58,309 nt of DNA from Candidatus Omnitrophota bacterium (GTDB lineage Bacteria > Omnitrophota > Gorgyraeia > JABMQH01), in the NCBI GenBank assembly GCA_013203355.1, contig JABMQH010000075.1:1-58309 (forward strand), read 5' to 3'. The notes under the pieces were generated by a model that saw only the letters and a list, made by a program, of their open reading frames with translations, searched no databases and was not told the DNA's origin. Numbering within the stretch: position 1 is the first letter of the stretch; every line of letters begins with the position of its first letter. This document shows, in pieces, positions 16,923 to 39,320 of this stretch. The position numbers and the translations under genes are program-made.

Positions 16923-16924
16923 GG

Positions 16925-19613: not shown

Positions 19614-22600
19614 TTATATATTTTCTGCAGTTTGTTCTGGTCCCTTCCCTAAGTCGTCTAGTCCTGCCGCACCAGCTGCAGGCTGCTTAGGCTTTCCATT
19701 TGGCACCCATTGATATTCTACCTTGCCCGCACCTTCGGGTGAGAGGCGAAGCCATCGACCTTTTGTAAACTCATCATTTGCCATCTCCCAACGGCCTTCA
19801 CTCAGGTGTGTTGTAAATCTTGCGATACCTCTTTCTAGCTGCTCTTGCGTATAGCCGGGGTTCTGATCAGGATCAGCTAACATTGCTTGACATATTTCAA
19901 GCGCTTCTTTTATCTTGGCCACCATAAGTTTATCTACCAGATGCCTTTGGTCTTCAGGCATCGCTGCCTTTGTCTTACTAATTAAATGTCTGAAAATTAC
20001 TCCAGGCATATCTAGAACTCCGCCTATTTCATCATTCTCTAAGCCGGGGCCGTTCTTAAAAGTAAACGCAAGAACGTTTTCGTCTTTTCTTATTCCATTT
20101 TTTACATACGCGCAGAAACCTACCCTGGCTCCAGCCGCTATATCCGTATCCGAAGCTATAAAGGCACTTTCTATTACAACCCTTTCTTTCGCTCCTGTTA
20201 TGCCTATAGTTGAACCACCTCCTATATTGGCAACATTGGCAACATATACAGTCTCCCCATCTATTTCCGCTTTAATCTCAGGGAAATCCGTATTACGAAT
20301 TGCTGTAGCCATATGGTGGTCTGCTAGACCTGTTGCGCCATTTGTTAACTCGGTCCCAACGGTTGAATCAATAAATGGGCTTCCTATAGTACCGGCACTT
20401 CTACCTCCTACAACTACAGCGCGTGGTTCAAACTTTGTTCCATCGGCTGCAGTGTTTCTTTCTATCAAATTATGAGAAGACGTTACATCATCTCCAAGCT
20501 GAGAATTACGTATACGTGAATTTGAGTGCTTATTGTTTTCGCCTATTGTTACATTTTCTCCTACACAATTCTCAATCTCTGAATTTGCTCCCACTGTAAC
20601 ATTGTCGAGATGGGAACCCCATACGGTTACTCCTGGTCCAATTACTGTGTTGCCTGTGAGCCTGGTCCCTGGAAGAAGTCTCGCAGTTGGATGCACCTCC
20701 ACCGCTGCATCGACATACGTTATTTGTGTTCTTGATCTCAGGGCTTGTGTTTTTACTATATCCGTCCGAATAGGTTCTCTTGCAACACCTTGACGCCTAA
20801 CATCCAATATCTGTGGCATCATTGTCTGTGCGTACTGGTGATGATTTGCGATAAGTCCATCCGCGATCAATTTGGTTAATAGCGGCTTACATCTGTCACT
20901 TGTATACATCGCAGTCGCAGCATCGTAATTCCACTCTGAAATAAACTTACCATTGCGAAATTCCCACGCTCTACTGTCCAAATGTGTTTTATATAAAGCT
21001 AATGCCTGCTGTAGTGTATCCCTTCTCGCTTCGAGTTTCGCCTTTGCTTCGGAACCGTCGCCCTCTGCAGCAATCAATGGCTCAAGCGCAGATAAGGCCT
21101 TTGTGCAAATAACCATACCTGTCCTAAGCATCTTCTCTGGAAAATCATCCAACACCTTAAGTACCTCATCTGGATCCGTATCATCCAGTTTTGCTTTCGC
21201 GTGAACTTTGGTGACCATATTTTCCATCATTCTTATAATCGCATGCGGACTATACGTAAAGGTCCATCCGGGAGTGGTATCTCTCGGACTAAGCCCATGT
21301 CTGGCCTCACCCGGTAGTATCTGGCCCCAGACCTCCCTTCCCTGATGTGCGGCTACACTAAATGGATTAATAACGGTTAGGTTCGGCTCCATGGCATGTT
21401 CCCAAGTTGTCAAATCCAGTTGTCTAGATAAAGCTATAATTCTTGTGTCCGGGGCAATTATACAGGATGGTTTAACAAAAACCGTACCGTGGTCGCTTAT
21501 GTCTCCTACTCCTGTAATGCGAGTGACGTAGTCACCCTGCGCAACCGCCTTCTCACCCTGATAATCTGAGAAGATAGCATACTCGCCCACAGGACTTACA
21601 TTAGGCAAACCCTCTATAAATTCTGGAACTACATTATCACCTTGTAAATCCAGTGCTAAAACCTTGTTTGTGAATACTCCTGTAACAAAAGCCATTCTCT
21701 TGATCTCTAATCCCCAGCCAAGCCAGGACTCAGCCACCTCTGTGGGGCCTATTATATTCACTAAATCCTCTGCATGAACCAATTCCACCTTGGCTCTTAC
21801 AATATTACATTGTCTGCCTATTTCGCTATGAGATACGTCGCTTTCTTCCACTACTGACCCCTTACCAACTCTGGTATTAATAAGATTGGACTGTCCTGTT
21901 ACTTTAGCTTCTGTTTCTATAACAGTCCTATCGTTAGCAACGCGGTACTCGCTATCCGCGTACCCCCATTTCTTTTTCTTTTCCACCGTCTTTAAAGTGG
22001 AATCCGAAATTATTGCCCTCTTCTCTACGTCAACATCATCCAACTTGCTGCGTTTGATTTGTGCACCCTGCTCAACTATGGAATTGGCGACAACGCTATT
22101 CTCGGAAATCCTTACATCTGAACCTATAACTGTCTTCATGCCTGTTACTATGCTTCCGCTTCCTATAAAAGCAGTCTCATCTATATTTCTAAGATCGACA
22201 TCCTTGGCTATCATTCCTCCTTGCTGTGTTTCATAGTAGTGGCCGTTATCGGTAAGGTTCAATTTAGCCATTCGTTCTGCTCTTTCCGCAGGAGGCATTG
22301 CTACTGCTGCTTCTACCACAGGAGTTCCTGCGGTAAGCCGCGCAAAGGAAAATTCAGAAGACGTTGATCTATTAAGTTCATTCGCAAAGATCGTCGCTAA
22401 TGTCATCTGGCTGAAATTTGTCAGTTCGTTGGGTGAATCGGGTATCGTCAGAATAAGTGCTCCTCGATTTTCAAGGAAGTCCACTGCCGGTTTTGCCTCT
22501 GCCCCATCCTGTACATCCGATTCCTTTACCACCACTATCAGGCTGGCGGCCCTCGTATCGTTTCTGTTTGCATCAACAACAGCTGCGGTCAGCGTCCTGG

Positions 22601-25600
22601 AATCGGTACCTAATACAACAACCAAGGCATCTTGGTATTTCGAAGCCGGGGCCTCTGTCGGATGAGGAGTAAACTCTGAATTCCTACCCGCTTTATTAAT
22701 CTGATCCAAAAATTTCTTTACCGTGTTCCACACCGCTGCCAGAGGTCCATGCACAGATTCATCTACAGGAAGGGCTTCTGCTTCAACACCGGCTATACGA
22801 TGCAACATAGACCCCCAGACCAACGCACTTGCATAATCCTGGCCGCCACCAATGATCTGAACCGTCCTATGCTGCATATCAAATTTATTCCTCCTCAAGT
22901 CAACGAGGCGCTGTCGCAAACGTCCAATCTGAGCTTCATTGGTAACAACTTGCCGTGACAACTCTCTAGCAGAGGTTAGGCCTACTTCGTAATCCTTCAT
23001 ATTTAGCGAGCCTTTTTGCCAACCCAGATAAACCCCAAAGCTCATCAACGACATATAGTACATTCCTGTAGTAGATGTTGCGTCCAAGTCATTGGGCAGG
23101 ACAATTGAGCCAAAACTGTTATTTCCATATGCCAGGACGCCTGGCGAGCGCCCATCAGTAATAGCAAATATGGGTGTCCCTTCAGGGACGTTTTCCTCTA
23201 ACACCTGCAGAATAAGCTCTTCGCCAATCGCATCCCCGGGCACTGCTTGTTGATCTGCATTACGGCCTTCAACCGGATCTTCGATATCAGGGATCTCTGC
23301 ATTTCTGCCCCAGGGTCTATTGTTCGACCGCCGCAGGACGACAACCACGGTATTTTCATCAATATCTGATGCAAGATCATAATCGCGTGGATTGTGGACT
23401 ATTACATTTACCCCTGCCAGTGTAGGTTTAACTGCTTCAAACACAAGTCCTTGTGTTTTATTCGCCGTAATCTTATACTCCCTGCCGTCGAAAAATGCTT
23501 TCAGCTGCTGTTGAAATTCCCTAGAAAACTGTCCTTCGTCAACCGTTGCAAATTCTATTAGCTGATCCTCACCCTTAACTTTTTTAACACCATCTTCCCC
23601 AATACCATTAATTTCTATTGGGCCACCTATTGGCTGGCCATGTTTAGTTTTTTGAATATAAAAATTGCGCGTACGAAAATTAAACGTAACGGTATAATAT
23701 TCTCCATTGACGGCAACATTTCCTACTGTCTGAGTCTCCATCGGTGTTCCGGTAGCCGGATCCTTAGGCCGATCAAAGAGACCTGCTCCTGTTATTCGAA
23801 AATCTGCGTGTCCCAAGGGGCCTGCAGCCATAATAGCTGCTGTATTACCATCGACCACTTCTTCAGTGATCACAACTACTTTTTTTATGTTCTCTGGACC
23901 AAATTGCTTAATGGCACTATCGTTGAATGTGCTGTAGCCAGCCATGCCGCCGACAGTGTTAGGAAGACACCTTCGTGTAACATTATCATATACTAATGGA
24001 AGTCTGGCTATGGCCTTATCGATTGATTTTGCCAATGTGGCCCAGTAAGCAGCAATCGCCTGCTGGTGCTGCACAACAAGCTCTTCAATAGCAACACCTT
24101 GAAGTTCGCTCATATATTGAAACATTTCATAGAGAACGCCGGGGACTTTAATACCTTTTACCGTGACAGATTTGGCGAGATTACGTGAACTATCAATTTC
24201 TGTATCCGATAAACCTGCTTGCCTAGCAAACGCTACCGCAGACTTAAAAAAGAACGTTGCATCGACAACAGCCTGGAGGGCGGGATGAACTCTATCAACC
24301 CCAAAAATCTGGACGCGGTCGCGACCATCGCCGCCTTCTGCTACAGGATCTATACCCGCTTCTTGCTTTAAAGTTTGTAGTTGTTCCCAAAATTCATTTT
24401 TCTCATCGCCTTCAAAATCATCCTCGTTAAAAGTTTGCACGATAAAATCAAGGCCAAGCTCTTTGCATCTTCTTATAAGCGCTAGTGCCTCATCAAACCG
24501 TGTAGGGTCGGTAACTTGAATAACGATCGGCCATCTCAGTTTATTTTTAGCAATAAACTCTAGAAGATTCCATGCAGTATCCTCGCCATAATCATAAGCC
24601 TTACCGAGAATCCAGCGTGTCTCCTCCCATTTTAATTCACCTTCCTCTATAATAGGATTATTGTGCTTACTGCCGAATACCAGAGCACCGCTCCCATTCC
24701 GATAGCGTTTGCCTTCGGCCATAATCCAACTATTCGGGTCCTCTGGATCTAATTGCGGATCTCTTACTTGTGCTGTTAGTATTTCCGGCATTTGCTGTTG
24801 TTGTTGCACAATTGTCATGCGCTCTGCCTGCACCTGCTGTCTTTGTTCTTCTTGGAGCGCGCCATCGCGCATTTGGCTAAGCTGAACACCGAGGATACCA
24901 AGATCAAATAGGATGCCCAAGAATCCTTTCGTGGTAAAGACGGCTCTCTCTTCTCCGGTCTTTACGTGAATTGTACCTGCCGAGTCAGCGGTGAGCGTTC
25001 CAATATCCGACTTAGGTTTTCCAGTAAGAGAAGCGGTGCATACCCCGTGACTGTCCTTAGCCTGCGTCAAGGCATCGAGCGTCAATGCCGTGGAACCGGA
25101 CCAGCTAATACCGACAACAAAATCGTGTTTTTCATCATAATGCTGGTTAGTAGAGACGAGATGACCCGGACCTACGGGAATAATTTCAACGCCGGGTAAA
25201 AGGGTTTTGAAAAGTCGCTGAACACATTTTGCATCTCTTTCAGAGCTTCCGATACCAGTAATAAACATTCGTTCAAGCCCCTCAAGATTCTCACCAAATC
25301 GTGCCTTTAACTCATCAATATCAATACCATATCGCTTGAAAACTCCCTTAACCTTTTCCATTGACATATCAACGGTCCCATCGGGCTGAATATAATTGGC
25401 CACACTCCTTAAAACAATCCATGGGATTTCATTGATGTGTTTCTCGGCATAGGTCCTAAATTTACCCTTATCAGCTATATCAATAGGGATTAAATCTTCC
25501 TCATCTTTTATTTCATCTGTTGTGGTTGGATCGATAGGGGTACCCAAGAACTTAGTATACTCAAGATTAACTTCCCAGTCATCAGTTGCTTCATTGAGCC

Positions 25601-28600
25601 TTTTTGATATTGAAACGACCTTTTGTTTGCCTTTAAGGGTTACCACGCGGGCGCTATATTTGTTTCTAATCACGTCCTTCTTGGTTTCCACTTCTTTGTC
25701 GATTTCTCGAACCCTTATGTTAAAAGCCTCGATTGCCTGGGCTACTTGCGGCTCATAGGAAGCTCCTAATTCCGCTTGCTTTCCAGCGAGCACTTCAAGT
25801 GCTGCATCCCTCGCTGCTCTAGCTTCGTCCACCGCCGCCATACCGTCTTCATCTATCTGATTAAGATCTCTTACATCGGCATCTATTTGTTGAGTGTCCC
25901 ATAACCGCAAGGCAGAACTGGGATCAGAGGTAACCTGGTATTTAGCGTCGACTACTTTCCCCTTTACAACTTCAGTTCTAATGACTACATAAAGAGGCCT
26001 TTCATGGCTTACGATAATGTGTTTATCAGGCATGTGGAGAGAGCGCACATCTGCAGCTATTTCAGATATTTCAGATTCCGGACCAAACACCGTAAGGGCC
26101 ACGCGCAAGGCTATTTCGTCAGGCGACATGAATCTAGTTTTTTTCGATGTCTTGACAATTTCGTTCCACAATGCTGCTAATGTCATCTCCTCCCCTGTCG
26201 CTATTTGTACGTTCCCTTCCAAGAAATTATGCGGGGAGTCTGTATCTGTATACTCTTGGGTTTCGTCACTCCTTCTGGATTCTTCACCACTTATAGCCAT
26301 AGAATCTAGGGCCGCTGCATCGCGAACATACTCCCAGAATACAATAAGCGCTTTGGTGTCGGTAAGAATCCTTTCTCCGTCTTCTGTCATAAAGTCATAA
26401 CCGCGCGCTTCAAGAAACTCTACCATGGCAGCAACGATATTCGGATTTAAGTCACCATTGTGGGCCATGATGCGTGTCGCTCTGCCTCTTTCCTCGGCCG
26501 GCAGAGCCTTGGCTCTTTTTAAACATTCCTGTAAACGTTCTCGCGAGCTCAAAGGTTGTCCACCATCTCCGTTGTGTGTAGGTAAATCTTTAACTATTGA
26601 AGCGATAGCGCTGGCCCTAAGCCCTGACACTCTACCAGTGTCCGTATGCGGTTGCCCATCTTTCTTCTCGTTACTTCCAGTGGTGGCCCATCGATCGTGT
26701 CCTCCTATGTAATCTATATTACTCATGTACCCCAAAGTAATGCTATCAAGGGTGCCGAGTTCGATCCCGTATTTCCTAATAACCGCAATTTTTGCATTAC
26801 CTGGATTTGCCGGAACAACAGATTCCCTCTGGAACCATATCGTCAGCGCCTCAGAAGCCCTGCCAACCATATTAAGCCGTGCCTCTTCGCGCCAGTCAGT
26901 AAACCAATCTTTTGTTCTCCAATCTTTTACGCCCTTGGTTCTCAACAGGGTTCGGTAGTTTTTCTCTACTTCTCCTCGATCTTCTGTCCGCACGGTAAAA
27001 GTGCCTATTAACGATGACTGCAACCTGAAGAGGTGCCGAACAGGATCCAGACTAAATATAGCAGGAACCCTGACAAAACGACCATTGAGAAACTGCTTTA
27101 TGGCATCCCAGCGGACTTGATCGCCTGCGGGAACCTCTTCTCCCCTGATTACCCTATCAATCACCCGCTCGTAGGTCATAACAAGCTCTGCTATCTTTGC
27201 TTCGATGTGTTCTGGATGTTGTCCCATCGCTTGCTCAGCAGCAGTAATTGCTTCTTCTAATTCAAATTTAATAAAATATTTAATATACTCGATATCCAGT
27301 TGATGTTTGTCTTTAAGTCTCCTTACCAAAGCGGGGATATTATTGCGGATTTTATATTCTCTACCACCAAAAAAATCAACTGCTAATCCGACGGGAGAAA
27401 ATCCCATTTGTCCAACCCCAATTGCTTTATTCTTTACGACATGGCCAGCGGCATCAAGCTCTCGAGTATACATCTCAGGTGCGCTGAAATCTGAATGTGC
27501 AGTAACGGCTATGTTTTGGTGGGTTCGCAATGTTTGACGTGCAGCAGTGACCCGCCTATTTATTTCCTGGCGCTCTTTCCGGTTCAGATTTCTCCATTTT
27601 TCATGAAGTGCTGCCAGGTCTTGATCTGTAAGCGGTTTGTGGTCATACAATTTAAGTAATGCTATTTCTAATTGAGGATCTTCACAGTCCGATACAACAG
27701 CTTCACGATTTTCATATAAATAATGCATAGCTCTTTCTTCAAGTCCCTGGCCTCTCATATATATAGCCCTGGCCATTTCTTCAGAGCCACCCATCACCTT
27801 ATTTACCCGGGTGCCAAACTCATCGTTGGTACTAATACCTACATCATCCGATCCCCTATACTCCATCTGCCTCATTGATCCCAGATGCTTACCAAATCCT
27901 GCTCCGATAGTTGTAATAATGCCGCAGGCACCTCTTATCCGTTTCAAATCGGCCCCTTCTAAAAGCCGAAATCCTGCATCACGAGCTTGCATAACCGGCT
28001 GAAGGAGCTTAAGTTCATCACCTAACTCACCATTAACCAGAATATTTCCTGTCCATCTTTGTATAAAATCCCCTATTGGTTCTGTTTGCTGAATCCCATT
28101 ATCTCTATAAGTTATTTCACTTTCACTTATGCTTTCAACTTCGACATAGTGATTTCCTTCTGGATCAGAAGCATTCCTTTTTACATGAGCTATAAATCTC
28201 TGCTGCCCGGTAGCTAGGTGTCTTAAAAGCTCAAAGCCGTTAGCAGTGGGTGCCATTCCGACACCTATTAACTCGCCTAATTCAGCTAATGCAAAGGCCG
28301 TATGATATAACCTGCCCTCTGCATCAATGTGGGCAACTTTGCCTTCCGACTCTGACATATCTATAGCTGTCAAAAACAATGCTGATATATCATTAGAGAC
28401 ATGCGAAGGCGAGGAGTATCGGCCTGTAAAAAGCGGGCTGGCATGTTGGGGATTATGAAGTGCATCGTGTAGGGCTTGTGGGCCGCAGGCCTCTGCAAGC
28501 CGCCTGTTAAGCCTATCCCATTCTTTTCTTGCAGTAGCCTGGAGTGCGGTATTTCCTGGATTGAGTGCTGCTACAATTTCTAAAAGCCAGTTATCAGGGC

Positions 28601-30863
28601 TACCGCGAAGACCGTGCATGCTCTTGACAAATAGCTCTGCCAATTTATCCACCCTCTCCTGTCGCGTTGCCCTTCGGCCCTTAGCGGTTCTTGACCATGC
28701 CTCAAACTCCCTCTTAAAAAGTGCGCTATCCGCTTCAGCTACAAGCGTTTTGGGTGCTTGTGCTTCCCCTCTTGTTACCTGAATCCCTGAGGCCTCTACA
28801 ACCCGGGCATATTGCGCTTCTGTTAGAATCTGAAGACCTACATTCTCCTGCTCTCCTACGACATCAGGATCAACTTCAATATCCGCAGGGGCTTCTTCTA
28901 AATTAAAATAACGGATAATTCTTTTTTCTCCAGCGATAGTGATAGGTATGTAATAGCGTCCGGTTCTATCTACCAAAAGATTGTCTATATCAAATGTTAG
29001 CGAACCAAGGGCTGCTCTAAGATTTTCTGCTTGGTCGTGCCGCAGGCTACCTACATACCCTGAAAACCATGTATCCCTTGCTTCATTTAATCTTTGCGTT
29101 AGGTCCGCGCTACTAATATTTGGATCTTCTTGCTTTAATTTATACACAAAGCCGCTTAAGAATAATAAAGCTACTTGCGTATTAAAATCTACTATCGCCT
29201 CGCTAGCAACAGGTGAATCTTTGGCCAGAAGTGAAGTTATGGCCAATTCATTTCTGTCGGTAGAAAACTTTTTTACATAAGGAATTTTTGTTCCTGAAAG
29301 AATTTTTAAATACGGGTTTTCTGTACTATGGCTTGTTATGCGCGGCGAAATCACTACATAAGATATGCCTCGCCCCCTTAGCCGCTCCGTTATCCCCTTT
29401 GTATGATAGCCACCAGTGATCAAGGCCATTACATCGACATTGCTTTCGTCCATCTTTTTAATTGTATTCTCGATTATGGCATCATCTCGCGTATCTGCTA
29501 TACGATAAAAGTCTTCTAAATCAGGCAGGTGTTTATCTATAAGAGAAAAATTTGGATCAGGGCGATATGGGATCCTATATTTTTTAGCCTTAGAATTTAT
29601 AAAGTCTATAAAGACAGCCGAGCGGAAGTTGGTTTTATTATTCGTGTAATACTCTACGTCTTTTTTCGACATAGAGATATCAAGCATATTTTCTAAAAGC
29701 TGTATGTGCTTCAAGAGCTTAGCAAGTGTGCGCTGATCCTCATTAGCAAAAAGCCCTTCCTTGATCAGATCTTCCAAAGCAACCATTTCCTCTAAAAGAC
29801 CTAAATTATCTATCCTTTCATAGATCATTAAATACGTGATATAGTGACTTAGGTTTGGATATTTATGAAGATCGATCTTTTTTACATAGGAGAGGTTTCT
29901 CAAATAGGCGTAATATACGGCTGCGCCAATTCGATTGGATTGAAAACTCGTGCTTTGCGTCAATAACTCTTCAAGCTCTTTTTTTGAAAGAATCTTTTCT
30001 AAAATAGAAATAACATCGGAGCGTTCACGGTCTACTTGATTGAAATTGATCTTCTTTTCTATATCGATAGTCTTATAAAGGAGTTTAAGGTTGGCAAATT
30101 CTTCTACGGGTACCTTCTTGGATTTTGCAAGCTTCCGCAGATAATTACAATAATCAATTAGGTTGATCTTCTCATTTTGGTACGCAGCGGCCTTTGCGTC
30201 TAAGCGCTTAAGCGTCTTTGAATAAATACGTTCCTTAAATTTACCTAACACCCTCTTTACGTTATCACATGCGGATATCATCGCCTCTCTGTCCGCTAAA
30301 GTATTGGTGAATGATGCAAGATTTGCTAAATAGTACTCTTTTGTCTCCACGCCATAAAGTTGTGGCGGGTTTTTAGAGGTTATCGCGAGAAACTCCGCAC
30401 CGTTTATCTTTCCCTTTTTCATAAAATAGGTTGCAACTTCTCTTCTGATGTCTTTATCCGGGAAAGCGGTAAATAAAGAAGGGTCTATTTCGCCTGTCGA
30501 TCCCTCAAGGCCGATAAATCTTAAACCATTTTCGTTTACAAGGGTATCTAAAATCTGAGAAATATTCGATTGTGCCTCAAAATTGCAGTGGGCATCTTGG
30601 ATGTTTATTACAAGCCTGCTCTTATTTCCCTTAAAAATCTCATGCACCCTACCTGCGCTCTCAGCAATTATGATCTTTTCGGGGTCAGTTATCTTAATTT
30701 GACGGGAAATTGAAAGGTCCCCTTCAACTTTCAGTTCCGGGGATTGAGATTGTGATGTTTCCATCATACCAGCAAGGCTTGCCTGGGTGGGATTTGTTAA
30801 CAGAAAGGAAAAAACAACAAGGAGAGAAATAATCCTGCACAAATATGTCTTCCTAAAACTCAT
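19614..30863 (-). CDS. 3749-aa signal-anchored multidomain protein. Domain order: unknown N-domain, degenerate C39-like domain, expanded GlmS-type amidotransferase (GATase plus SIS pair), second SIS-like pair, two DUF4954/left-handed beta-helix modules
   Basis: AAGGAGG 8 nt before the ATG. N-terminus is MSFRKTYLCRIISLLVVFSFLLTNPTQA. GlmS landmarks: Cys980 (GA-CGII), EYRG, GGHDRWATTG (W1392), HNGDLNPN (H1468), TDTKAL, GISWSGSTALTL, GELKWEE, and NLAKSVTV (ending at aa 2235), which matches the GlmS C-terminus. VHGPLAAV lies at H2705. Hexapeptide-repeat regions start at about aa 2869 and about aa 3380. Confidence 0.75.
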   Translation of the reverse strand: MSFRKTYLCRIISLLVVFSFLLTNPTQASLAGMMETSQSQSPELKVEGDLSISRQIKITDPEKIIIAESAGRVHEIFKGNKSRLVINIQDAHCNFEAQSNISQILDTLVNENGLRFIGLEGSTGEIDPSLFTAFPDKDIRREVATYFMKKGKINGAEFLAITSKNPPQLYGVETKEYYLANLASFTNTLADREAMISACDNVKRVLGKFKERIYSKTLKRLDAKAAAYQNEKINLIDYCNYLRKLAKSKKVPVEEFANLKLLYKTIDIEKKINFNQVDRERSDVISILEKILSKKELEELLTQSTSFQSNRIGAAVYYAYLRNLSYVKKIDLHKYPNLSHYITYLMIYERIDNLGLLEEMVALEDLIKEGLFANEDQRTLAKLLKHIQLLENMLDISMSKKDVEYYTNNKTNFRSAVFIDFINSKAKKYRIPYRPDPNFSLIDKHLPDLEDFYRIADTRDDAIIENTIKKMDESNVDVMALITGGYHTKGITERLRGRGISYVVISPRITSHSTENPYLKILSGTKIPYVKKFSTDRNELAITSLLAKDSPVASEAIVDFNTQVALLFLSGFVYKLKQEDPNISSADLTQRLNEARDTWFSGYVGSLRHDQAENLRAALGSLTFDIDNLLVDRTGRYYIPITIAGEKRIIRYFNLEEAPADIEVDPDVVGEQENVGLQILTEAQYARVVEASGIQVTRGEAQAPKTLVAEADSALFKREFEAWSRTAKGRRATRQERVDKLAELFVKSMHGLRGSPDNWLLEIVAALNPGNTALQATARKEWDRLNRRLAEACGPQALHDALHNPQHASPLFTGRYSSPSHVSNDISALFLTAIDMSESEGKVAHIDAEGRLYHTAFALAELGELIGVGMAPTANGFELLRHLATGQQRFIAHVKRNASDPEGNHYVEVESISESEITYRDNGIQQTEPIGDFIQRWTGNILVNGELGDELKLLQPVMQARDAGFRLLEGADLKRIRGACGIITTIGAGFGKHLGSMRQMEYRGSDDVGISTNDEFGTRVNKVMGGSEEMARAIYMRGQGLEERAMHYLYENREAVVSDCEDPQLEIALLKLYDHKPLTDQDLAALHEKWRNLNRKERQEINRRVTAARQTLRTHQNIAVTAHSDFSAPEMYTRELDAAGHVVKNKAIGVGQMGFSPVGLAVDFFGGREYKIRNNIPALVRRLKDKHQLDIEYIKYFIKFELEEAITAAEQAMGQHPEHIEAKIAELVMTYERVIDRVIRGEEVPAGDQVRWDAIKQFLNGRFVRVPAIFSLDPVRHLFRLQSSLIGTFTVRTEDRGEVEKNYRTLLRTKGVKDWRTKDWFTDWREEARLNMVGRASEALTIWFQRESVVPANPGNAKIAVIRKYGIELGTLDSITLGYMSNIDYIGGHDRWATTGSNEKKDGQPHTDTGRVSGLRASAIASIVKDLPTHNGDGGQPLSSRERLQECLKRAKALPAEERGRATRIMAHNGDLNPNIVAAMVEFLEARGYDFMTEDGERILTDTKALIVFWEYVRDAAALDSMAISGEESRRSDETQEYTDTDSPHNFLEGNVQIATGEEMTLAALWNEIVKTSKKTRFMSPDEIALRVALTVFGPESEISEIAADVRSLHMPDKHIIVSHERPLYVVIRTEVVKGKVVDAKYQVTSDPSSALRLWDTQQIDADVRDLNQIDEDGMAAVDEARAARDAALEVLAGKQAELGASYEPQVAQAIEAFNIRVREIDKEVETKKDVIRNKYSARVVTLKGKQKVVSISKRLNEATDDWEVNLEYTKFLGTPIDPTTTDEIKDEEDLIPIDIADKGKFRTYAEKHINEIPWIVLRSVANYIQPDGTVDMSMEKVKGVFKRYGIDIDELKARFGENLEGLERMFITGIGSSERDAKCVQRLFKTLLPGVEIIPVGPGHLVSTNQHYDEKHDFVVGISWSGSTALTLDALTQAKDSHGVCTASLTGKPKSDIGTLTADSAGTIHVKTGEERAVFTTKGFLGILFDLGILGVQLSQMRDGALQEEQRQQVQAERMTIVQQQQQMPEILTAQVRDPQLDPEDPNSWIMAEGKRYRNGSGALVFGSKHNNPIIEEGELKWEETRWILGKAYDYGEDTAWNLLEFIAKNKLRWPIVIQVTDPTRFDEALALIRRCKELGLDFIVQTFNEDDFEGDEKNEFWEQLQTLKQEAGIDPVAEGGDGRDRVQIFGVDRVHPALQAVVDATFFFKSAVAFARQAGLSDTEIDSSRNLAKSVTVKGIKVPGVLYEMFQYMSELQGVAIEELVVQHQQAIAAYWATLAKSIDKAIARLPLVYDNVTRRCLPNTVGGMAGYSTFNDSAIKQFGPENIKKVVVITEEVVDGNTAAIMAAGPLGHADFRITGAGLFDRPKDPATGTPMETQTVGNVAVNGEYYTVTFNFRTRNFYIQKTKHGQPIGGPIEINGIGEDGVKKVKGEDQLIEFATVDEGQFSREFQQQLKAFFDGREYKITANKTQGLVFEAVKPTLAGVNVIVHNPRDYDLASDIDENTVVVVLRRSNNRPWGRNAEIPDIEDPVEGRNADQQAVPGDAIGEELILQVLEENVPEGTPIFAITDGRSPGVLAYGNNSFGSIVLPNDLDATSTTGMYYMSLMSFGVYLGWQKGSLNMKDYEVGLTSARELSRQVVTNEAQIGRLRQRLVDLRRNKFDMQHRTVQIIGGGQDYASALVWGSMLHRIAGVEAEALPVDESVHGPLAAVWNTVKKFLDQINKAGRNSEFTPHPTEAPASKYQDALVVVLGTDSRTLTAAVVDANRNDTRAASLIVVVKESDVQDGAEAKPAVDFLENRGALILTIPDSPNELTNFSQMTLATIFANELNRSTSSEFSFARLTAGTPVVEAAVAMPPAERAERMAKLNLTDNGHYYETQQGGMIAKDVDLRNIDETAFIGSGSIVTGMKTVIGSDVRISENSVVANSIVEQGAQIKRSKLDDVDVEKRAIISDSTLKTVEKKKKWGYADSEYRVANDRTVIETEAKVTGQSNLINTRVGKGSVVEESDVSHSEIGRQCNIVRAKVELVHAEDLVNIIGPTEVAESWLGWGLEIKRMAFVTGVFTNKVLALDLQGDNVVPEFIEGLPNVSPVGEYAIFSDYQGEKAVAQGDYVTRITGVGDISDHGTVFVKPSCIIAPDTRIIALSRQLDLTTWEHAMEPNLTVINPFSVAAHQGREVWGQILPGEARHGLSPRDTTPGWTFTYSPHAIIRMMENMVTKVHAKAKLDDTDPDEVLKVLDDFPEKMLRTGMVICTKALSALEPLIAAEGDGSEAKAKLEARRDTLQQALALYKTHLDSRAWEFRNGKFISEWNYDAATAMYTSDRCKPLLTKLIADGLIANHHQYAQTMMPQILDVRRQGVAREPIRTDIVKTQALRSRTQITYVDAAVEVHPTARLLPGTRLTGNTVIGPGVTVWGSHLDNVTVGANSEIENCVGENVTIGENNKHSNSRIRNSQLGDDVTSSHNLIERNTAADGTKFEPRAVVVGGRSAGTIGSPFIDSTVGTELTNGATGLADHHMATAIRNTDFPEIKAEIDGETVYVANVANIGGGSTIGITGAKERVVIESAFIASDTDIAAGARVGFCAYVKNGIRKDENVLAFTFKNGPGLENDEIGGVLDMPGVIFRHLISKTKAAMPEDQRHLVDKLMVAKIKEALEICQAMLADPDQNPGYTQEQLERGIARFTTHLSEGRWEMANDEFTKGRWLRLSPEGAGKVEYQWVPNGKPKQPAAGAAGLDDLGKGPEQTAENI

Positions 30864-30969: not shown

Positions 30970-31106
30970 GAAAAACTTGCTAACTTTTTTAACTCCTAAC
31001 TAACTTGTACCGTTTTGCCACAGTTTCCTATTTGGGCTCGAAATAGTTCCCGATACCAGTGTGAAACAGTTTCTGGCGCCAATTAGAAGCTGTTTCGTAT
31101 TGGTAC

Positions 31107-31136
31107 TTGACAGAGGGGTATGGCTTCTTGTAGAAT
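31107..31136 (+). promoter_or_regulatory. sigma70-type promoter of the MtnX-like gene; very short leader
   Basis: TTGACA (31107-31112), an 18-nt spacer, TAGAAT (31131-31136), then ATG 12 nt downstream with no Shine-Dalgarno sequence. Confidence 0.5.
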
Positions 31137-31148
31137 AAAGCGCTTAAT

Positions 31149-31814
31149 ATGAGAAAGATAATCGTGATCTCGGATTTTGACGGAACAATCACAGCAAAGG
31201 ATTCGCTTGTTGAGATATTAAACAAATTCGCAAGCCCGGAGTGGCATAAGATCGCAAGGCTTATAAATAAAGGCCGCCTTGGTACCCGAATCGGCCTGCG
31301 AAAAGAATTCAATTTATGCAAAGTCACCAGAAAGGAATTCGTAAATTTTCTTATCAAAAACATAAAGATCGATACAACCTTTAAAAACTTTTTACAATTC
31401 TGCAGAAAAAATAAATTCAGATTCCTGGTTGTAAGCGGCGGCTTCGGGCTTAATATTAAAACCATCTTTAAAAAATTCGGGATCAAGAACATACCTTTTT
31501 ACGCCAATGCAATAAAGTTCAATGAGGACGTAGCCGAGTTAAAATTCCCTCCCGAAGCTAAGACCTGCAAAACATGCAGCCATTGCAAGGCGCCTTATAT
31601 AGGACAATTTAAAAAGAAGGGTTATTTCACTATTTATATCGGGGATAGTGTAACGGACCGCTGCCCTGCAAGGGTCGCTGACTTAGTATTCGCCAAGCAT
31701 CAGCTGGCTGAATATTGCAAGGCCAAAGGCATTAAGTATATTCCTTATAATACCTTTGGCCAGATAAAGAAATATCTTACTTCTTGCTCTTTACAGCCTC
31801 GGAAGCGACACTAA
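31149..31814 (+). CDS. HAD-IB phosphatase of the MtnX (2-hydroxy-3-keto-5-methylthiopentenyl-1-phosphate phosphatase) family
   Basis: IVISDFDGTITAKDSLVEILNKFASPEWHKI closely resembles the B. subtilis MtnX N-terminus. The Cys cluster CKTCSHCKAPY and IGDSVTDRCPA..DLVFAK also match. No other methionine-salvage genes are nearby. The 3' end overlaps the convergent DUF4954 gene by 38 nt. Confidence 0.65.
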   Translation: MRKIIVISDFDGTITAKDSLVEILNKFASPEWHKIARLINKGRLGTRIGLRKEFNLCKVTRKEFVNFLIKNIKIDTTFKNFLQFCRKNKFRFLVVSGGFGLNIKTIFKKFGIKNIPFYANAIKFNEDVAELKFPPEAKTCKTCSHCKAPYIGQFKKKGYFTIYIGDSVTDRCPARVADLVFAKHQLAEYCKAKGIKYIPYNTFGQIKKYLTSCSLQPRKRH

Positions 31815-33690
31815 TAGTCTCAAGAAGCTTTTCCACTTCTTTTTTAAGCTGCGCGGTTTCCTGGTGAGTTTGCTTTACAAAGCTATCCTCGGCAGCTGGT
31901 GCATGTGCCTCCGGATAGTCGTCTATAATACGAGCCCCTCTTATATCATCCTTCTCTTTTGAAACCTGCACATCTCTGGCGATCTTCTCCTGCATCGAAA
32001 CTAAGAGCTTCAGGTTTTCTTCAATGCTGTTGCTGGACAGCTCTTGGTTCAAAATCGCCCTCTCGTGTTCCCATCTGGGATCCTGGGTCTTTTTGGTCAA
32101 GGTGTCTTTTGCTTTTTTGTTGGCCTCAAGCTGTTTTTTTAACCCCATAAGAGCATAATACCTTATATAAAAAGTATAGGCCTCAATACCTGCCTTGCGG
32201 GATCTTTCCAGCATATAGCTCTTACCTATCCCCTTTATATCTTTATCCGTATAGAGCTCTTTTTTCTGCTTAACGTCTTCCAGCCTCTTTCTTGCATCAA
32301 TCATAAGATCTACTATCTCGGGCCTGAAGACCTCAAATTCAATCTTTGCCCGTTTTGCCTTATTTCTCTTTTTGTATTTACCTTCATTTCTCCTGACTGT
32401 AAATATGTTATCGCTCAATACCCATCCCGGCATGATCTCATTATATGCGGGGGATATCTTCTCAATGGTTGCAGCGGATGAATTAATAAGAGAAAACGGG
32501 AATGTAACCTTTTGTGGAAGCGCATTCACGGCAGTTGCAATAATCGAATAGGGTGCCTTTGTGAAATCTGATGGAAATTTTATATTTACGCCTAAGCCAA
32601 AGAAGGTGCCTTCTCCCGCCCATAATTCCTGGTCGGGTGCTTTTGAGGTATGGTTTGAACCAACGTTTGCTCCATAGCCAACGTTACCTTTACCTTCCGG
32701 CCAGAATGCCGCGATCAAAAGGGCCTGATGATGAAAGCCTACAAATGGGCCAACCAAACAAGCAGTAACCTCTCCCTCGGCAATACCGGTGTTTGCTCCT
32801 ATGATGGAATCCGTGACCTTCCCATGACGCTCAACATGAGAATGCTCTACCAAAACAGAGTTGGCGACTATTGCCATCGAGGTAACCTCGCAACCCCATT
32901 GGATAAGCGAACCTTTTACATAAGCGCCATCGGAAATCTCGGTTTCCTCTGCCTCGCTACTTAAGATCATTGAATTAAGAATCGTCTCAGCGCTATCTAT
33001 TGCGGCATGCTTTCCTATATAAGTATTCGAGATTTTCTTTATATTCTTTACCTTTGCGCCTTCTTCGATAATTCCTTTATCCTGCTTAATTTGTTCAATG
33101 TATTTGTCTACGGAGTTGCTGTATTCCTCCAGGAATTTCTTATCAGCTCTGGAGGCCGCTACCTTGGAGGCTACTTCTATGGTTATTTCAGCATAGGTCT
33201 TTACTTCTCTGCCACCTGTCTCAATGGCAATTGGTAATTCCGAACCATTACCGAATGTGTTTTCCTTTTTTGCGGAAATAACACCGCAGTTAAAGACAAC
33301 GGTGTTATCTGCGACAATATAATTAGATAAAGTCTTTACATCTTGTATAAGTACTCCGTCGCCTATATTGGAATCAATTACTATGGAGTTAAATATTCCG
33401 GAGGGGACCTTGGTGCCTTTTGCGATCTCTACGTTTCCGGATAATTTGCCTATAGTCACCTCACCTGAAAAATAATTGCGCCTTATCCTTGATATATCAA
33501 TACCCTTGGCAACCTTTATCTTTTTCCAGTCCTCGGCACAATTGCCGTTCGCCTTTAATTTATCTATCTCTGCCTTGGTAAGCGAGGCGGTTGCCTTCTT
33601 GGCAATTTTCTTTGAGCCTTGTATGCTTTTTATAATTTCGGATTTGGTTATAAGCCCCTTTAATTCACTTAATACTTCTTTGGTGCCCAT
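31777..33690 (-). CDS. DUF4954-family left-handed beta-helix protein
   Basis: 637 aa. It starts with LTKAEIDKLKANGNCAEDWKKIKVAKG..IRRNYFSGEVTIGKL, continues with long imperfect hexapeptide repeats, and ends in a helical C-terminal region. This matches DUF4954 proteins as I remember them and needs HMM confirmation. Confidence 0.55.
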   Translation of the reverse strand: MGTKEVLSELKGLITKSEIIKSIQGSKKIAKKATASLTKAEIDKLKANGNCAEDWKKIKVAKGIDISRIRRNYFSGEVTIGKLSGNVEIAKGTKVPSGIFNSIVIDSNIGDGVLIQDVKTLSNYIVADNTVVFNCGVISAKKENTFGNGSELPIAIETGGREVKTYAEITIEVASKVAASRADKKFLEEYSNSVDKYIEQIKQDKGIIEEGAKVKNIKKISNTYIGKHAAIDSAETILNSMILSSEAEETEISDGAYVKGSLIQWGCEVTSMAIVANSVLVEHSHVERHGKVTDSIIGANTGIAEGEVTACLVGPFVGFHHQALLIAAFWPEGKGNVGYGANVGSNHTSKAPDQELWAGEGTFFGLGVNIKFPSDFTKAPYSIIATAVNALPQKVTFPFSLINSSAATIEKISPAYNEIMPGWVLSDNIFTVRRNEGKYKKRNKAKRAKIEFEVFRPEIVDLMIDARKRLEDVKQKKELYTDKDIKGIGKSYMLERSRKAGIEAYTFYIRYYALMGLKKQLEANKKAKDTLTKKTQDPRWEHERAILNQELSSNSIEENLKLLVSMQEKIARDVQVSKEKDDIRGARIIDDYPEAHAPAAEDSFVKQTHQETAQLKKEVEKLLETISVASEAVKSKK

Positions 33691-33707
33691 ATTTCTCCCT
33701 TCGTCTT

Positions 33708-33762
33708 AAATAGGGACGATCCCTTCTGCCTCTATCTTTAGGTTAGGGAGCCGTCCCTATTT
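33708..33762 (-). other. long intergenic stem-loop between nagB and the DUF4954 gene
   Basis: AAATAGGGACG (33708-33718) pairs with CGTCCCTATTT (33752-33762): an 11 bp perfect stem, with further TCCCT/AGGGA pairing inside the 33-nt loop. It ends 6 nt upstream of the DUF4954 RBS. Confidence 0.4.
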
Positions 33763-33803
33763 ATACATTCAGCAATGACGATGAACAATAAACTCTATGC
33801 TAA

Positions 33804-34574
33804 TTACTTACAGCCGCAGCAGCCAGAAGTCGGTGCTTCGTATTGCTTCTTTAAATTGCTGGCAGCATCTTTATCAACTACAAACGTAGTGTTTTTGTGT
33901 GCCTGTAAGAGCGAAGCAGGTACCTGCTCGGTTGGTGAACCTTCAATTGACTTTGCGATCGCATCCGCCTTTGAGGTCTTATCGGCAATAAGGACTATCT
34001 CCTTTGCCTCTAAGATAGTGCCGTTACCCATCGAAAGGGCCTGTTTCGGCACTTCATTTGCGCTCTTGAAAAATCTTGCGTTATCCTCAATAGTCGTCTT
34101 GGTTAAATCAACAACCCTTGTCCTTGAATCTTTTGCTGAACCGGGTTCATTGAAGGCGATATGGCCGTTTCCACCTATCCCAAGCAATTGAATGTCAATA
34201 CCGCCGGCCTTTTTTATTGCCTCTTCGTAGGCCTTGCACTCAGCAGCCGGGTCTTTTGCTACACCGCTTAATACGTGCGTATTGGCCTTGTTGATGTTGA
34301 TGTGGTCGAAAAGGTTGGTATTCATGAAGTATCTGTAGCTCTGGTCGTGCTCCGAGGTTATCCCTAGGTACTCATCCAGATTGAAAGATCTCACGTTTGA
34401 AAAATCAAGGCCTTCCTCCTTGTGTATACGGATTAGCTCCTTATACATCTTGACAGGCGTCCCACCTGTTGCAAGCCCTAATATGATATTGGGCTTTTTC
34501 TTAATCCTCTCTGCGAAGATTCGAGCAGCTGCTTTGCTCATCTCGTCAGAACTCTTGCAAACAATAACTTTCAT
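33804..34574 (-). CDS. nagB: glucosamine-6-phosphate deaminase
   Basis: ILGLATGGTPVKMY, FNLDEY and GIGGNGHIAFNEPGS signatures, with AAAGGAGA before the ATG. It has an unusual C-terminal tail ..APTSGCCGCK. Confidence 0.85.
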   Translation of the reverse strand: MKVIVCKSSDEMSKAAARIFAERIKKKPNIILGLATGGTPVKMYKELIRIHKEEGLDFSNVRSFNLDEYLGITSEHDQSYRYFMNTNLFDHININKANTHVLSGVAKDPAAECKAYEEAIKKAGGIDIQLLGIGGNGHIAFNEPGSAKDSRTRVVDLTKTTIEDNARFFKSANEVPKQALSMGNGTILEAKEIVLIADKTSKADAIAKSIEGSPTEQVPASLLQAHKNTTFVVDKDAASNLKKQYEAPTSGCCGCK

Positions 34575-34760
34575 TGCGGTTCTCCTTTCCCTGTTAATAA
34601 AGTTTGAGCTTATGAACTTATCATATTAAGAAAAATTTGTCAATAATTTTCTGGGGACGGCATGCGGAGAAACAGGCTATCTGTTTATAACTCCTTATAC
34701 TTAAAGATGTTGCGGTAAGTACTCCTATAATAGGATGTCCCCTTTAGAACTGTCCCACTG

Positions 34761-36860
34761 TTAGTCTTTTTCGCACAAGGCCTTGTAGCTCTTATAATAG
34801 TGTATTGCAAACCCTGCGAAGCTTGGATGTCTCTCAAACTCTCTTTTTGCCTCAACTAAAACCTTATTCAGATCCCTTTGAGTCAAATCTGCAAATGTCA
34901 ACTTCTCAAGCATTACTTCCTTTGCCGCAAACATCAAAAAACTGCTTCCATCCTCACTGCTATATTCCTGATATCGAATGTCTCTGAATTCAGGGTTTTG
35001 TGAAATGGCCTCAATCGCATCAAATGTCAGTTCACTAAGCCCTTCTTCGTCTTCTGGCTTAACGATCCCCCCGAATAAGGCCCTTAATTCAAAGAGTGCC
35101 TTTTTGAAATCTTCTTCAGCGGCCTTTTCCGGCTTCATGAGGCCTATGTATGTTTTTTTGTTGTCCGTATAAGTCTTTAGTGAAAATCCGTTGAAGCGGG
35201 TTCCTCCGACAAACCACGAGGTTTCTTCATCTGACAGATATTTATTGAACTTATCTTCATCTAAGCGCGAAATAAAATAAACTTCCTGATTAGGATATTT
35301 CGATGTCTCAACGCCTACAAAAACTTTTTTTCTGACCTCAGCGGCGTATTTTAACTCATCCAGGGCAAGCCGTATCATCCCGTCGGGACCAGATGCATAA
35401 TTTCTGTAGGCCATTATCCCTACATTATCGCATATATCAATTAACCTCTTATCAAGAAAACCCACCTGGTCAAACCAGAATGGTATGTCTATCCCGAATT
35501 CCAGCTTGGATTCGCTTGAGGAGATCAGTTTCTTGCACTCCTTGTTTAACGCCAAAAACTGATTTACAATCTCTTCTTTTTTACCAGAATGAAAACCGGG
35601 CAACAAATAGGGCTCGTTATCATAATGAATACCGTCTATCTGTTCCGAGGCAGGATATTTTTTATTAAACTCCAATATCGCATTTACCTCTGCCAGAACA
35701 AGGTGATGTTTGTCCTTCAAGCAAAAATCAGCCGCGCCGTCCAGTATGTGCACCTTCAGTCCCTCCGCATGCGCCTCCCTAAGAAAGGACCTTAACTTTG
35801 TTTCATAAAGCAATCTGCAGACTGTCTTGCCCTTATAAGGAATAAATTGATACTGGAGTTGAAAAAACAGAATTTGGATATCCTTCTTTTTGCAGAAATC
35901 AAACAACTCCTTTCTTTTGGCTTCATTCAGAAGGATTTCTTTCGAATGCCAGACCCACATTGCATTCTGCGTATTATTTTTCTCAGCCCTTTTTCTCATC
36001 AGGGTAACCTCTCTTCTTATCGTAAGCGCAGTGGATTTATTGTTAAATATCTTTCGTTTCAATTCTTTAAATTCCCAATACCGCGTATTTTCCCCGTCGA
36101 CCCTTGCGATCAAGTCTCCTTCTCTTAAACCTGACTTGTATGAGGGGCTCCCTTCCTTAATAGTTTTGACTATGGGGCCCTCAAATTCCATGCTTATCGA
36201 GAAAGGTAAAGATAACGCAATTGATGGCAATGGCCCGACATTAACATCTCTTTCTATAACTATTTTCAATATGGTGTTTGAAAGTCCTATTAAGATCCTT
36301 GACGCATTTTTCAGCCCTGCATAGGTAAGGTATTTCGCCCAACAGCTTACAATCACATCCCCTATTAAGAGATCAGTTTCTTTGGGGGCCTCTTTATCCA
36401 GGGCCTTGATAGCGATCTTCTCGCCGACCTTCTTTAAGCTAATCCCCAGCTGGGCCTTCAAGATATCCTTAAGATCTCTATAACGCCAACTCTTATTAAA
36501 ATGCCATCTTGCGTCCTCAAGGCCTTTTATGGCATCCTGGGTTTCTTTAAAATCTGGATTTGATTGAAGCGCCAACCGATAGAATTGAAGCGCCTTTTCA
36601 AAATCGCCTTTGGTTTTAAACTTTTTTCCGATATATAAATTATTCTGATACGGCTCATTAAAAAATATTTCGTCTATTTTTGATTTAAGGATTTCTCCTT
36701 CTCCGTAGTCGGGAATGTTAAATACAAATCGGTCATAATACTCTTCAACGACTAATCCCTTTTCCGTAGTGCCGTCTTTAAAATATATAGTATCAGCAAA
36801 AGCTTTGGGGGATAAAAAATACAGCGCAAAGGATAAGAAGAGGACTAAAGATTTCTTCAT
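34761..36860 (-). CDS. exported multidomain protein: TPR, 2 PDZ-like domains and a GH-A-like TIM barrel
   Basis: Signal peptide ..SPKAFA-DT, a TPR-like segment (GDFEKALQFYRLALQSNP), a PDZ-like segment (SPSYKSGLREGDLIARVDGENT) and a C-terminal barrel. The barrel has MWVWHSKE.., IDGIHYDNEPY (NEP acid/base motif) and VFVGVETSK. Confidence 0.6.
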   Translation of the reverse strand: MKKSLVLFLSFALYFLSPKAFADTIYFKDGTTEKGLVVEEYYDRFVFNIPDYGEGEILKSKIDEIFFNEPYQNNLYIGKKFKTKGDFEKALQFYRLALQSNPDFKETQDAIKGLEDARWHFNKSWRYRDLKDILKAQLGISLKKVGEKIAIKALDKEAPKETDLLIGDVIVSCWAKYLTYAGLKNASRILIGLSNTILKIVIERDVNVGPLPSIALSLPFSISMEFEGPIVKTIKEGSPSYKSGLREGDLIARVDGENTRYWEFKELKRKIFNNKSTALTIRREVTLMRKRAEKNNTQNAMWVWHSKEILLNEAKRKELFDFCKKKDIQILFFQLQYQFIPYKGKTVCRLLYETKLRSFLREAHAEGLKVHILDGAADFCLKDKHHLVLAEVNAILEFNKKYPASEQIDGIHYDNEPYLLPGFHSGKKEEIVNQFLALNKECKKLISSSESKLEFGIDIPFWFDQVGFLDKRLIDICDNVGIMAYRNYASGPDGMIRLALDELKYAAEVRKKVFVGVETSKYPNQEVYFISRLDEDKFNKYLSDEETSWFVGGTRFNGFSLKTYTDNKKTYIGLMKPEKAAEEDFKKALFELRALFGGIVKPEDEEGLSELTFDAIEAISQNPEFRDIRYQEYSSEDGSSFLMFAAKEVMLEKLTFADLTQRDLNKVLVEAKREFERHPSFAGFAIHYYKSYKALCEKD

Positions 36861-37792: not shown

Positions 37793-37830
37793 TTTGGTCT
37801 CGCTCCATTAAAGACCCCAATTACATCTAA

Positions 37831-37858: not shown

Positions 37859-37906
37859 AAACATAGCAATCATTCTATTATCGCACACAATAATGTGTAA
37901 CGGGGT

Positions 37907-38692: not shown

Positions 38693-38708
38693 GGAACCAA
38701 CCTCCGTT

Positions 38709-39317: not shown

Positions 39318-39320
39318 CGC

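Follow-up and report, generated by a model that had tools for sequence, protein, structure and literature searches.

The 58,309-nucleotide stretch analysed here (the window), contig JABMQH010000075.1 of a Candidatus Omnitrophota bacterium (assembly GCA_013203355.1), encodes a giant protein that combines a cysteine peptidase domain of the C39 family with a module resembling the amidotransferase GlmS. The two are joined by a short sequence that has the features of a double-glycine (GG) leader motif and ends directly in front of Cys980, the N-terminal nucleophile (Ntn) cysteine of the GlmS-like glutaminase. The resident C39 domain appears to cut the Ala979-Cys980 bond, probably in cis and during translation, a reading to which we assign a probability of roughly 55%; cleavage at this Gly-Ala/Cys junction (here and below, a slash marks the predicted scissile bond) would be the most economical interpretation of the arrangement. 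This is most likely a case of a known protease family and a known recognition motif employed in cis for the maturation of an Ntn enzyme. From the N-terminus, the protein consists of a signal peptide or anchor, an N-terminal module, the C39 peptidase, the GG-type site, the GlmS-like module with large inserts, a further conserved region and two left-handed beta-helix modules (Table 1).

The family to which this protein belongs is small and divergent. An exhaustive search with amino acids (aa) 641-1240 against 1.84 billion representative proteins recovered only 16 relatives, 1,197-4,402 aa in length, which together with the window protein yield a set of 17 related domains sharing 19-51% identity. 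Word-indexed searches (with aa 761-1560, alignment A1 and the C39 domain of the relative P0009) produced zero matches, an effect of the index given the 16 relatives found exhaustively. Single-sequence searches of the PDB with aa 765-1700, aa 1361-1620 and aa 31-750 yielded nothing useful, so that family profiles had to be employed.

With such profiles, the domain upstream of the junction is identified as a C39 peptidase by sequence profile, profile-profile and fold comparisons alike, in agreement with the C39-like pattern noticed in the initial annotation. Pfam PF03412 matches 9 of the 17 family members (best E = 6.1e-14), and its gathering cut-off of 22 bits is passed by P0009 (74.9 bits over profile positions 12-128), P0013 (26.9) and P0012 (22.8-26). 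Searched against PDB sequences, the family profile matches PCAT1 (E = 1.2e-4), with the His, the Asp and the WxG block aligned. Comparison by hhalign with the peptidase domain of a plasmid-encoded C39 ATP-binding cassette (ABC) exporter of Staphylococcus haemolyticus gives a probability of 94% (E = 1.2e-7), and the alignment that extends to the Cys helix, obtained via P0009 with the same genuine exporter, 96.6% (E = 4.9e-10). In an AlphaFold2 (AF2) model of aa 750-1004 (predicted local distance difference test score, pLDDT, 77; predicted template modelling score, pTM, 0.75), the best PDB matches found by Foldseek are substrate-bound PCAT1, LahT150 with its leader peptide, and ComA (top matches 6v9z, 8vp5, 6mpz, 3k8u and 5xe8, E = 4e-4 to 2e-2, template modelling score ~0.5 on the target). 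The protein around this domain is giant and enzyme-like, and Pfam and NCBIfam scans detect no ABC domains in it.

Conservation of the catalytic residues indicates that this domain is probably active. Leaving Gly and Phe aside, no side chains other than those of Cys793 and His905 come close to invariance across the 17 divergent sequences. Cys793 opens the first helix, where its surroundings, 'CGP..L', resemble the 'DCGPTCL' of a real exporter. In P0009, the relative nearest to canonical C39, CAIISLSGLLTKLGKNVS aligns without gaps with CGPTCLAMISQYYGKRVS of that exporter, and by way of this alignment Cys793 corresponds in position to the catalytic Cys of that genuine C39 enzyme; the Pfam match of P0009, from profile position 12 onwards, covers this helix as well. 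Cys793 and His905 are 112 residues apart, compared to 74-79 in canonical C39, because the second helix is longer and an insertion separates it from the first; this insertion, of ~20-30 residues, displaces Cys793 from its canonical place. The initial annotation, which assumed the canonical spacing of 79 residues, missed this Cys, took Ile826 for the catalytic position and considered the domain degenerate and non-cutting. The alignment and the conservation of Cys793 in 16 of the 17 domains rule out Ile826. The same annotation had located His905, Asp921 and the string FIQRWTGNILV correctly, and the two residues align with the catalytic His and Asp of C39 peptidases; their spacing of 16 residues is that between His101 and Asp117 of LahT150 (PMC6363468).

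In seven more distant relatives (P0005, P0006, P0007, P0010, P0012, P0014 and P0015), a CxxC motif (C-S-N-C, C-P-N-C, C-R-S-C and others) has the catalytic residue as its second Cys, and the clade of the window protein reads A-E-A-C at these positions. The CxxC pair could be a redox or metal switch acting on the peptidase.

In the exporters of RTX (repeats-in-toxin) proteins typified by HlyB, C39-like domains of the same fold family bind the substrate and, having lost the catalytic Cys, do not cut it. Unlike these, the Omnitrophota domain retains its Cys almost without exception, which rules out assignment to the inactive type. Accordingly, among the three cutters envisaged in the initial annotation, which were a trans-acting C39 enzyme, Ntn self-processing, and a contribution of the resident domain as a degenerate docking module, we favour the resident domain, as an enzyme and not as a docking device. 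Cleavage in trans, by a separate C39 enzyme such as an exporter of the peptidase-containing ABC transporter (PCAT) type encoded at another place in the genome, or by another molecule of the giant protein, with the resident domain limited to docking, appears very unlikely. C39 peptidases do normally work in trans on leader peptides (PMC6363468), and a docking role would match that of the HlyB-type domains. However, the resident domain keeps its catalytic residues and precedes the motif by a fixed 20-60 residues in all relatives, the 58-kb window contains neither another C39 domain nor a PCAT gene, and PCAT leaders are short N-terminal peptides rather than regions of ~980 residues.

Table 1 Features of the giant protein and further long ORFs of the window
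Feature	Residues (aa)	Window position (nt)	Strand	Basis or remark
Giant ORF	1-3,749	19614..30863	minus	Uninterrupted; contains aa 815-984 (window 27912-28421), the span first annotated
N-terminal signal peptide or membrane anchor, MSFRKTYLCRIISLLVVFSFLLTNPTQAS	1-29	30777..30863	minus	Hydropathy scan; similar N-termini in most homologs
N-terminal module, ~710 residues	30-743	28635-30776	minus	Between signal-like segment and peptidase
Second GG-like motif, LFVKSMHGLRGS/P	744-755	28599..28634	minus	N-terminal edge of C39 domain; only in window protein and P0001-P0004
C39 (papain-like, bacteriocin-processing type) cysteine peptidase domain	779-946	28026..28529	minus	Local hidden Markov model; Pfam, PDB profile, hhalign; AF2 and Foldseek
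Cys793, predicted catalytic nucleophile (ACGPQAL)	793	28485..28487	minus	Conserved 16/17; upstream of the span first annotated
Insertion between first and second C39 helices	803-822	28398..28457	minus	Alignment; low confidence in AF2 model
His905, predicted catalytic His (NHYVEV)	905	28149..28151	minus	Conserved 16/17; aligned to His of PCAT1 and Staphylococcus C39 exporter
Asp921, predicted third catalytic residue (YRDNG)	921	28101..28103	minus	Aligned to 'DP' Asp of C39 exporters; mostly conserved
Variable linker, predicted helical	947-964	27972..28025	minus	Poorly conserved; AF2 helix at model residues 196-211
Recognition motif, FRLLEGADLKRIRGA	965-979	27927..27971	minus	Directly before Cys980; predicted scissile bond Ala979-Cys980
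Cys980, class II amidotransferase Ntn nucleophile	980	27924..27926	minus	Profile position 1 = Cys1 of GlmS/PurF; invariant 14/14
GlmS-type glutaminase (class II, Ntn) domain	980-1797	25473..27926	minus	~580 aa of inserts; AF2 and Foldseek
GlmS-type isomerase (SIS) part	1798-2237	24153..25472	minus	NCBIfam GlmS, Pfam SIS and PDB GlmS matches
Long ORF	1,728 aa	42967-48153	minus	Phosphoglucomutase domain I embedded at aa 1018-1118
Long ORF	1,107 aa	48155-51478	minus	No Pfam match
Long ORF	2,015 aa	52153-58200	minus	No Pfam match

The 15 residues quoted in the initial annotation as the putative leader-like sequence are correctly numbered, as is Cys980. Counting back from the predicted scissile bond, L968 is P12, D972 is P8, L973 is P7, I976 is P4, G978 is P2 and A979 is P1. 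The 15-residue pattern that was derived from this stretch occurs once in the giant protein, at aa 965-979, compared to 0.09 occurrences per protein in shuffled sequences, a value that is indicative only, given that the pattern was defined after the sequence had been seen; conservation across 14 junctions provides stronger support. In all 14 GlmS-like relatives recovered, the C39 domain lies directly upstream of the Cys, and the determinants at P12, P8, P7, P4, P2 and P1 are kept in register: P12 is aliphatic in 12 of the 14 junctions, P11 is Ser in six, P8 is acidic in ten, P7 is Leu or Met in nine, P4 is Ile, Leu or Val in 12, P2 is Gly in 11, P1 is small (Gly, Ala, Ser or Cys) in all 14, and P1' is Cys in all 14. 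The positions in between vary, as does the preceding linker. The consensus that results for the family, L-S-x-x-E-L-K-x-I-x-G-[AGSC]/C-G-I-I, is in essence the double-glycine consensus of the literature, which supports the fit proposed in the initial annotation. The published determinants of C39 substrates are Leu at -12, Glu at -8, Leu at -7 and Val or Ile at -4, followed by GG, GA or GS (PMC6363468). For comparison, a real bacteriocin encoded beside a real C39 exporter reads LNLAELNTINGG/G.

The distribution of the motif in the other giant proteins links it to the peptidase. The 17 giant proteins, 49,398 aa in all, contain four copies of the 12-residue core, [h]xxx[DE][h]xx[h]xG[GAS]; three of these fall within 80 aa after a C39 domain, compared to 0.11 expected, and the fourth follows a partial C39 copy. 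In P0009, LNDTEMKALRGA/G comes after the first C39 copy and LNDADLEKKLGG/L after the second, and LKTDDLLKIKGA/G follows the C39 domain of P0013, which contains RHS repeats and F5/8-type-C domains. No amidotransferase domain comes after any of these three motifs. Since it also follows C39 domains of unrelated giant proteins without an amidotransferase, the motif goes with the peptidase and not with the amidotransferase.

These patterns bear on the possibility that the junction is processed by the glutaminase itself, the Cys980 thiol attacking the Ala979 carbonyl (an N-to-S acyl shift, as known from some Ntn enzymes) in the folded domain, and that the C39 domain serves a different purpose, for instance docking or the cleavage of other proteins. 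Self-activation is common among Ntn hydrolases, and propeptides are found on some class II amidotransferases, among them Bacillus subtilis PurF and glutamate synthase. A strained scissile bond would be compatible with the uniformly small P1 residue, and P0010, in which Thr replaces the catalytic His, yet retains the junction as Gly-Cys/Cys. We nevertheless consider self-processing unlikely: it explains neither why P12, P7 and P4 are kept hydrophobic and P8 acidic nor why the motif recurs after C39 domains in proteins without an amidotransferase, it leaves a catalytically conserved peptidase without an evident substrate, and, to our knowledge, amidotransferase propeptides are short and none of them ends in Gly-Gly or Gly-Ala.

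The identity of Cys980 as an Ntn cysteine, already surmised in the initial annotation, is borne out by the family profile A3, which begins at this residue: its first position falls on Cys1 of E. coli GlmS (1xff, E = 1.8e-3) and on Cys1 in 1ecb and 1jxa, including PurF. In the AF2 model of aa 980-1800 (pLDDT 85, pTM 0.85), the first strand starts from residue 2, and PDB matches 1-47 found by Foldseek are all GFAT-1, GlmS or PurF. Without exception, the family members carry the motifs YRG, HDRWATTG, HNGDL and TDT, which are aligned to residues 69-89 and 94-127 of GlmS, and the residues of the glutamine site are present (in E. coli GlmS numbering, Arg26, Arg73/Trp74/Thr76, Asn98/Gly99 and Asp123). 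The NCBIfam GlmS model matches in several collinear stretches (E = 2.6e-29), although the equivalog level (TIGR01135/NF001484) is not reached (102 bits versus cut-offs of 381-418). Owing to the large inserts, the module spans ~1,258 aa, compared to ~600 aa for the GlmS architecture. Its C-terminal signature NLAKSVTV (aa 2228-2235, in the 24153-24179 region of the minus strand) is internal, followed by one variable residue, a Gly and ~1,500 further residues in all relatives; a cut at this internal C-terminus (NLAKSVTVKG) was considered and dismissed, as no GG-type motif is present there.

Catalysis by class II amidotransferases relies on the unblocked alpha-amino group of Cys1 as the base; because the corresponding Cys is residue 980 of the giant protein, it has to be exposed by proteolysis. 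Internal initiation at a Met-Cys pair as an alternative source of a free Cys was discarded, with no such pair near Cys980. A metagenome scan seeded from the amidotransferase region returned only the known members P0003 and P0016, and the look for members that lack C39 or start with Met-Cys was confined to these.

The structural model of the junction is consistent with substrate-like binding. The motif is predicted with pLDDT ~90, forming a helix at aa 970-975 (P10-P5) and an extended segment at aa 977-980 (P3-P1'), after which pLDDT drops to ~40. This geometry matches that of the leader bound to LahT150, in which P1-P3 are linear and P4-P11 form a two-turn helix (PMC6363468), and contact of the motif with Cys793 is presumed. 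The confident packing of the motif on the C39 domain would also be compatible with a structural tether that is never cleaved, with the GlmS-like module functioning without a free Cys, for instance by using ammonia directly or solely as a sugar-phosphate-binding or isomerase module. The high divergence of the module and its internal tail imply that the canonical rules of GlmS may not apply. The Cys/His pair of the peptidase and the complete set of glutamine-site residues of the amidotransferase are conserved at 19-51% identity, however, which would be pointless without catalysis, and N-terminal extensions abolish the glutaminase activity of GlmS and GFAT. A tether without cleavage is thus a decidedly unlikely explanation.

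Under the favoured reading, cleavage by the resident C39 domain, the motif would dock back on this domain, with Leu968, Leu973 and Ile976 inserted in a hydrophobic groove through a short helix and Arg-Gly-Ala stretched into the active site, where the Ala979-Cys980 bond would be cut. The cut would be intramolecular and co-translational, ahead of the burial of Cys980 in the Ntn fold; this timing appears most likely because the peptidase and the motif are synthesized ~800 residues before the glutaminase domain is complete. The N-terminal ~950-980 residues, comprising the signal or anchor, the N-terminal module and the peptidase, would be split from the rest, Cys980 would become a free N-terminal nucleophile (product N-terminus CGIITTIG, CGIITTIGAGFGK), and the glutaminase half of the much-expanded GlmS-like module would be switched on.

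Several observations weigh against this scenario, among them the small P1 residue, which suits self-processing as well, and the junction preserved in P0010. The window domain itself scores 15.6 bits against PF03412 (E = 0.015), under the curated cut-off, and the AF2 helix that carries Cys793 has pLDDT below 50. As stated in the initial annotation, no oxyanion Gln is evident; the 17-domain alignment shows no conserved Gln ~6 residues before the Cys, although the role of this residue has been questioned in LahT150 (PMC6363468). P2-P1 is Val-Gly in two relatives and Ala-Ala in one. The association of the C39 domain with the GlmS-like module in 14 of 14 proteins is not fully independent, given that the query that seeded the homolog set (aa 641-1240) included the C39 domain. 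Finally, the signal-like N-terminus suggests export, which is hard to square with an enzyme acting on glutamine and fructose-6-phosphate.

The arrangement shares its parts, but not their organization, with the known C39 systems. In common with the C39 domains of exporters of the PCAT/AMS (ABC transporter maturation and secretion) type, such as ComA, PCAT1 and LahT, the Omnitrophota domain has a papain-like fold with Cys, His and Asp, a His-to-Asp spacing of 16, the WxG and 'HFVV...DP/DN' blocks, and a substrate motif of the form L(-12)-S-x-x-E(-8)-L(-7)-x-x-I(-4)-x-G-[GAS] that is helical at P11-P4 and extended at P3-P1. Unlike in these exporters, it is not fused to an ABC transporter and sits ~780 residues into a 3,749-aa chain, the predicted site is located in the same chain, 20-60 residues downstream, and the 'cargo' is a ~2,770-residue enzyme instead of a peptide; the Cys-to-His distance and the missing oxyanion Gln are further differences. 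The goal, a Cys1 with a free alpha-amino group, is also that of the steps by which the class II amidotransferases B. subtilis PurF and glutamate synthase lose their propeptides and GlmS its Met. In the known cases of Cys1 exposure, from 1 to ~40 residues are removed, by Met aminopeptidase or by self-processing, whereas here ~980 residues, including a dedicated protease domain and a recognition motif, precede the Cys. Viral polyprotein cis proteases and self-releasing toxins, such as those with the cysteine protease domain (CPD) of multifunctional autoprocessing RTX toxins (MARTX), similarly cut their own chain nearby, perhaps in a single turnover, but differ in protease family and recognition motif and have not been linked to activation of Ntn enzymes.

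The presence of C39 domains in giant proteins of this phylum has been noticed before. Such domains have been described near the signal peptides of Omnitrophota giant proteins, with autocatalytic cleavage suggested (West-Roberts et al., bioRxiv 10.1101/2023.11.21.568195), and a 2026 Omnitrophota preprint includes a PF03412 architecture cluster of 24 proteins; the present case agrees with those in phylum and in placement near an N-terminal signal peptide. Searched by term, the two preprints place no amidotransferase or GlmS inside a giant protein, glmS appearing only in a gene-presence list of the 2026 preprint, and the passages concerned name no cleavage site, 'double-glycine' not having been among the terms searched. 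In contrast to the cases described in those passages, the prediction made here pinpoints a single bond and links the site to Ntn activation. Full-text literature searches found no paper joining C39 with Ntn or amidotransferase activation. The novelty claimed in the initial annotation for an internal double-glycine site that activates an amidotransferase therefore stands in part, within the literature searched, for the coupling of a defined site to Ntn activation, whereas the C39 domain and its possible self-cleavage in Omnitrophota giant proteins had already been proposed. In a different context, C39-like domains are known as toxin domains of polymorphic toxins (PMC3482391).

A broader interpretation, to which we would give slightly less than even odds, is that C39 has been recruited as a built-in, single-use maturase that, together with an in-chain leader-like motif, makes up a portable 'cut-here' module shared by Omnitrophota giant proteins of several kinds. 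In the present family, where the module would be fused in exact register with the Ntn Cys at P1', one cut would both free the enzyme from its anchor and activate it, and a second site at aa 744-755 may serve to excise the peptidase, in a bacterial version of polyprotein processing. This second GG-like motif has hydrophobic residues at P12, P7 and P4, Gly at P2 and Ser at P1; its weak points are a Pro at P1', a P8 residue that is not acidic, and Gly-Asn in P0003. It is confined to the clade with the long N-terminal module, and its role as a second cut site through which the peptidase releases itself is speculative.

Whether the Omnitrophota giant proteins function as single chains or as cut pieces is a question raised by those who described them, and here it takes the form of a testable, bond-level prediction, Ala979/Cys980. 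If the prediction holds, the range of C39 would be widened from leader removal in trans on exporters to the processing in cis of very large enzymes, and a third route to the Ntn cysteine of class II amidotransferases would be added to Met removal and self-processing. A unit of the peptidase and ~35 residues of linker and motif could serve as a self-cleaving tag that leaves any chosen N-terminal residue.

The remainder of the N-terminal region is less readily interpreted. For aa 1-979 as a whole, Pfam and NCBIfam searches gave nothing reliable, and for the aa 30-743 module, Pfam, NCBIfam and PDB sequence searches gave no match. This module is shared with P0001, P0003 and P0004 only; its strings 'QDAH' and 'GGYHTKG' are, presumably, reminiscent of TraB/GumN-type motifs. 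The hydropathy scan finds only two segments above threshold, aa 5-25 at the N-terminus and aa 1975-1993, the latter lying inside the SIS-domain match and read as part of the fold core. The identical protein is encoded on the JGI metagenome contig Ga0335112_10858364. The closest relatives in the genome collection, found by a scan with profile A2, come from two Candidatus Omnitrophota metagenome-assembled genomes (50% and 38% identity), and these loci are identical to P0001 and P0004.

In the LacPavin Omnitrophota locus L001, the giant gene (8417-16009) begins at the position aligned to window aa ~227, and its product stops at about window aa 2843, without the beta-helix modules. The N-terminus of this protein may be split or frameshifted because a 189-aa ORF (7851-8420) abuts the giant gene upstream. 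In P0012, a divergent GlmS-like relative with the same C39-GC/CG junction, aa 1852-2115 form a Glu/Leu/Phe/Val dehydrogenase domain, and its presence beside a GlmS-like module points to the joining of nitrogen-handling enzymes within these giant proteins.

None of the three further long ORFs of the window (Table 1) contains a C39 domain. Other GG-like strings in window ORFs, 'VVIGGG' of the ROK protein and 'LRALFGG' of the PDZ/TPR protein, were set aside as they look like chance occurrences or known motifs. The same applies to the junction-like ERLLREILKIRGS/LLDG ('LLREILKIRGS') near the C-terminus of a 462-aa ORF without a Pfam match (304-1692, minus strand), which is probably a chance occurrence.

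The giant gene is flanked, at 7135-17707 and 31149-42900, by an amino-sugar and chitin gene set. The products include a GH94 phosphorylase, phosphoglucomutase, a ROK kinase, a solute-binding protein-permease fusion, an ABC sugar importer, HAD phosphatases, NagB, a DUF4954 beta-helix protein and a GH18 protein with CBM9 and CBM30. For the overlapping ORFs at 31028-31814, the gene call on the JGI contig backs the plus-strand 221-aa HAD-type phosphatase (31149-31814) and not the minus-strand 154-aa ORF. The gene order PDZ/TPR - NagB - DUF4954 - giant gene is common to the window and L001.

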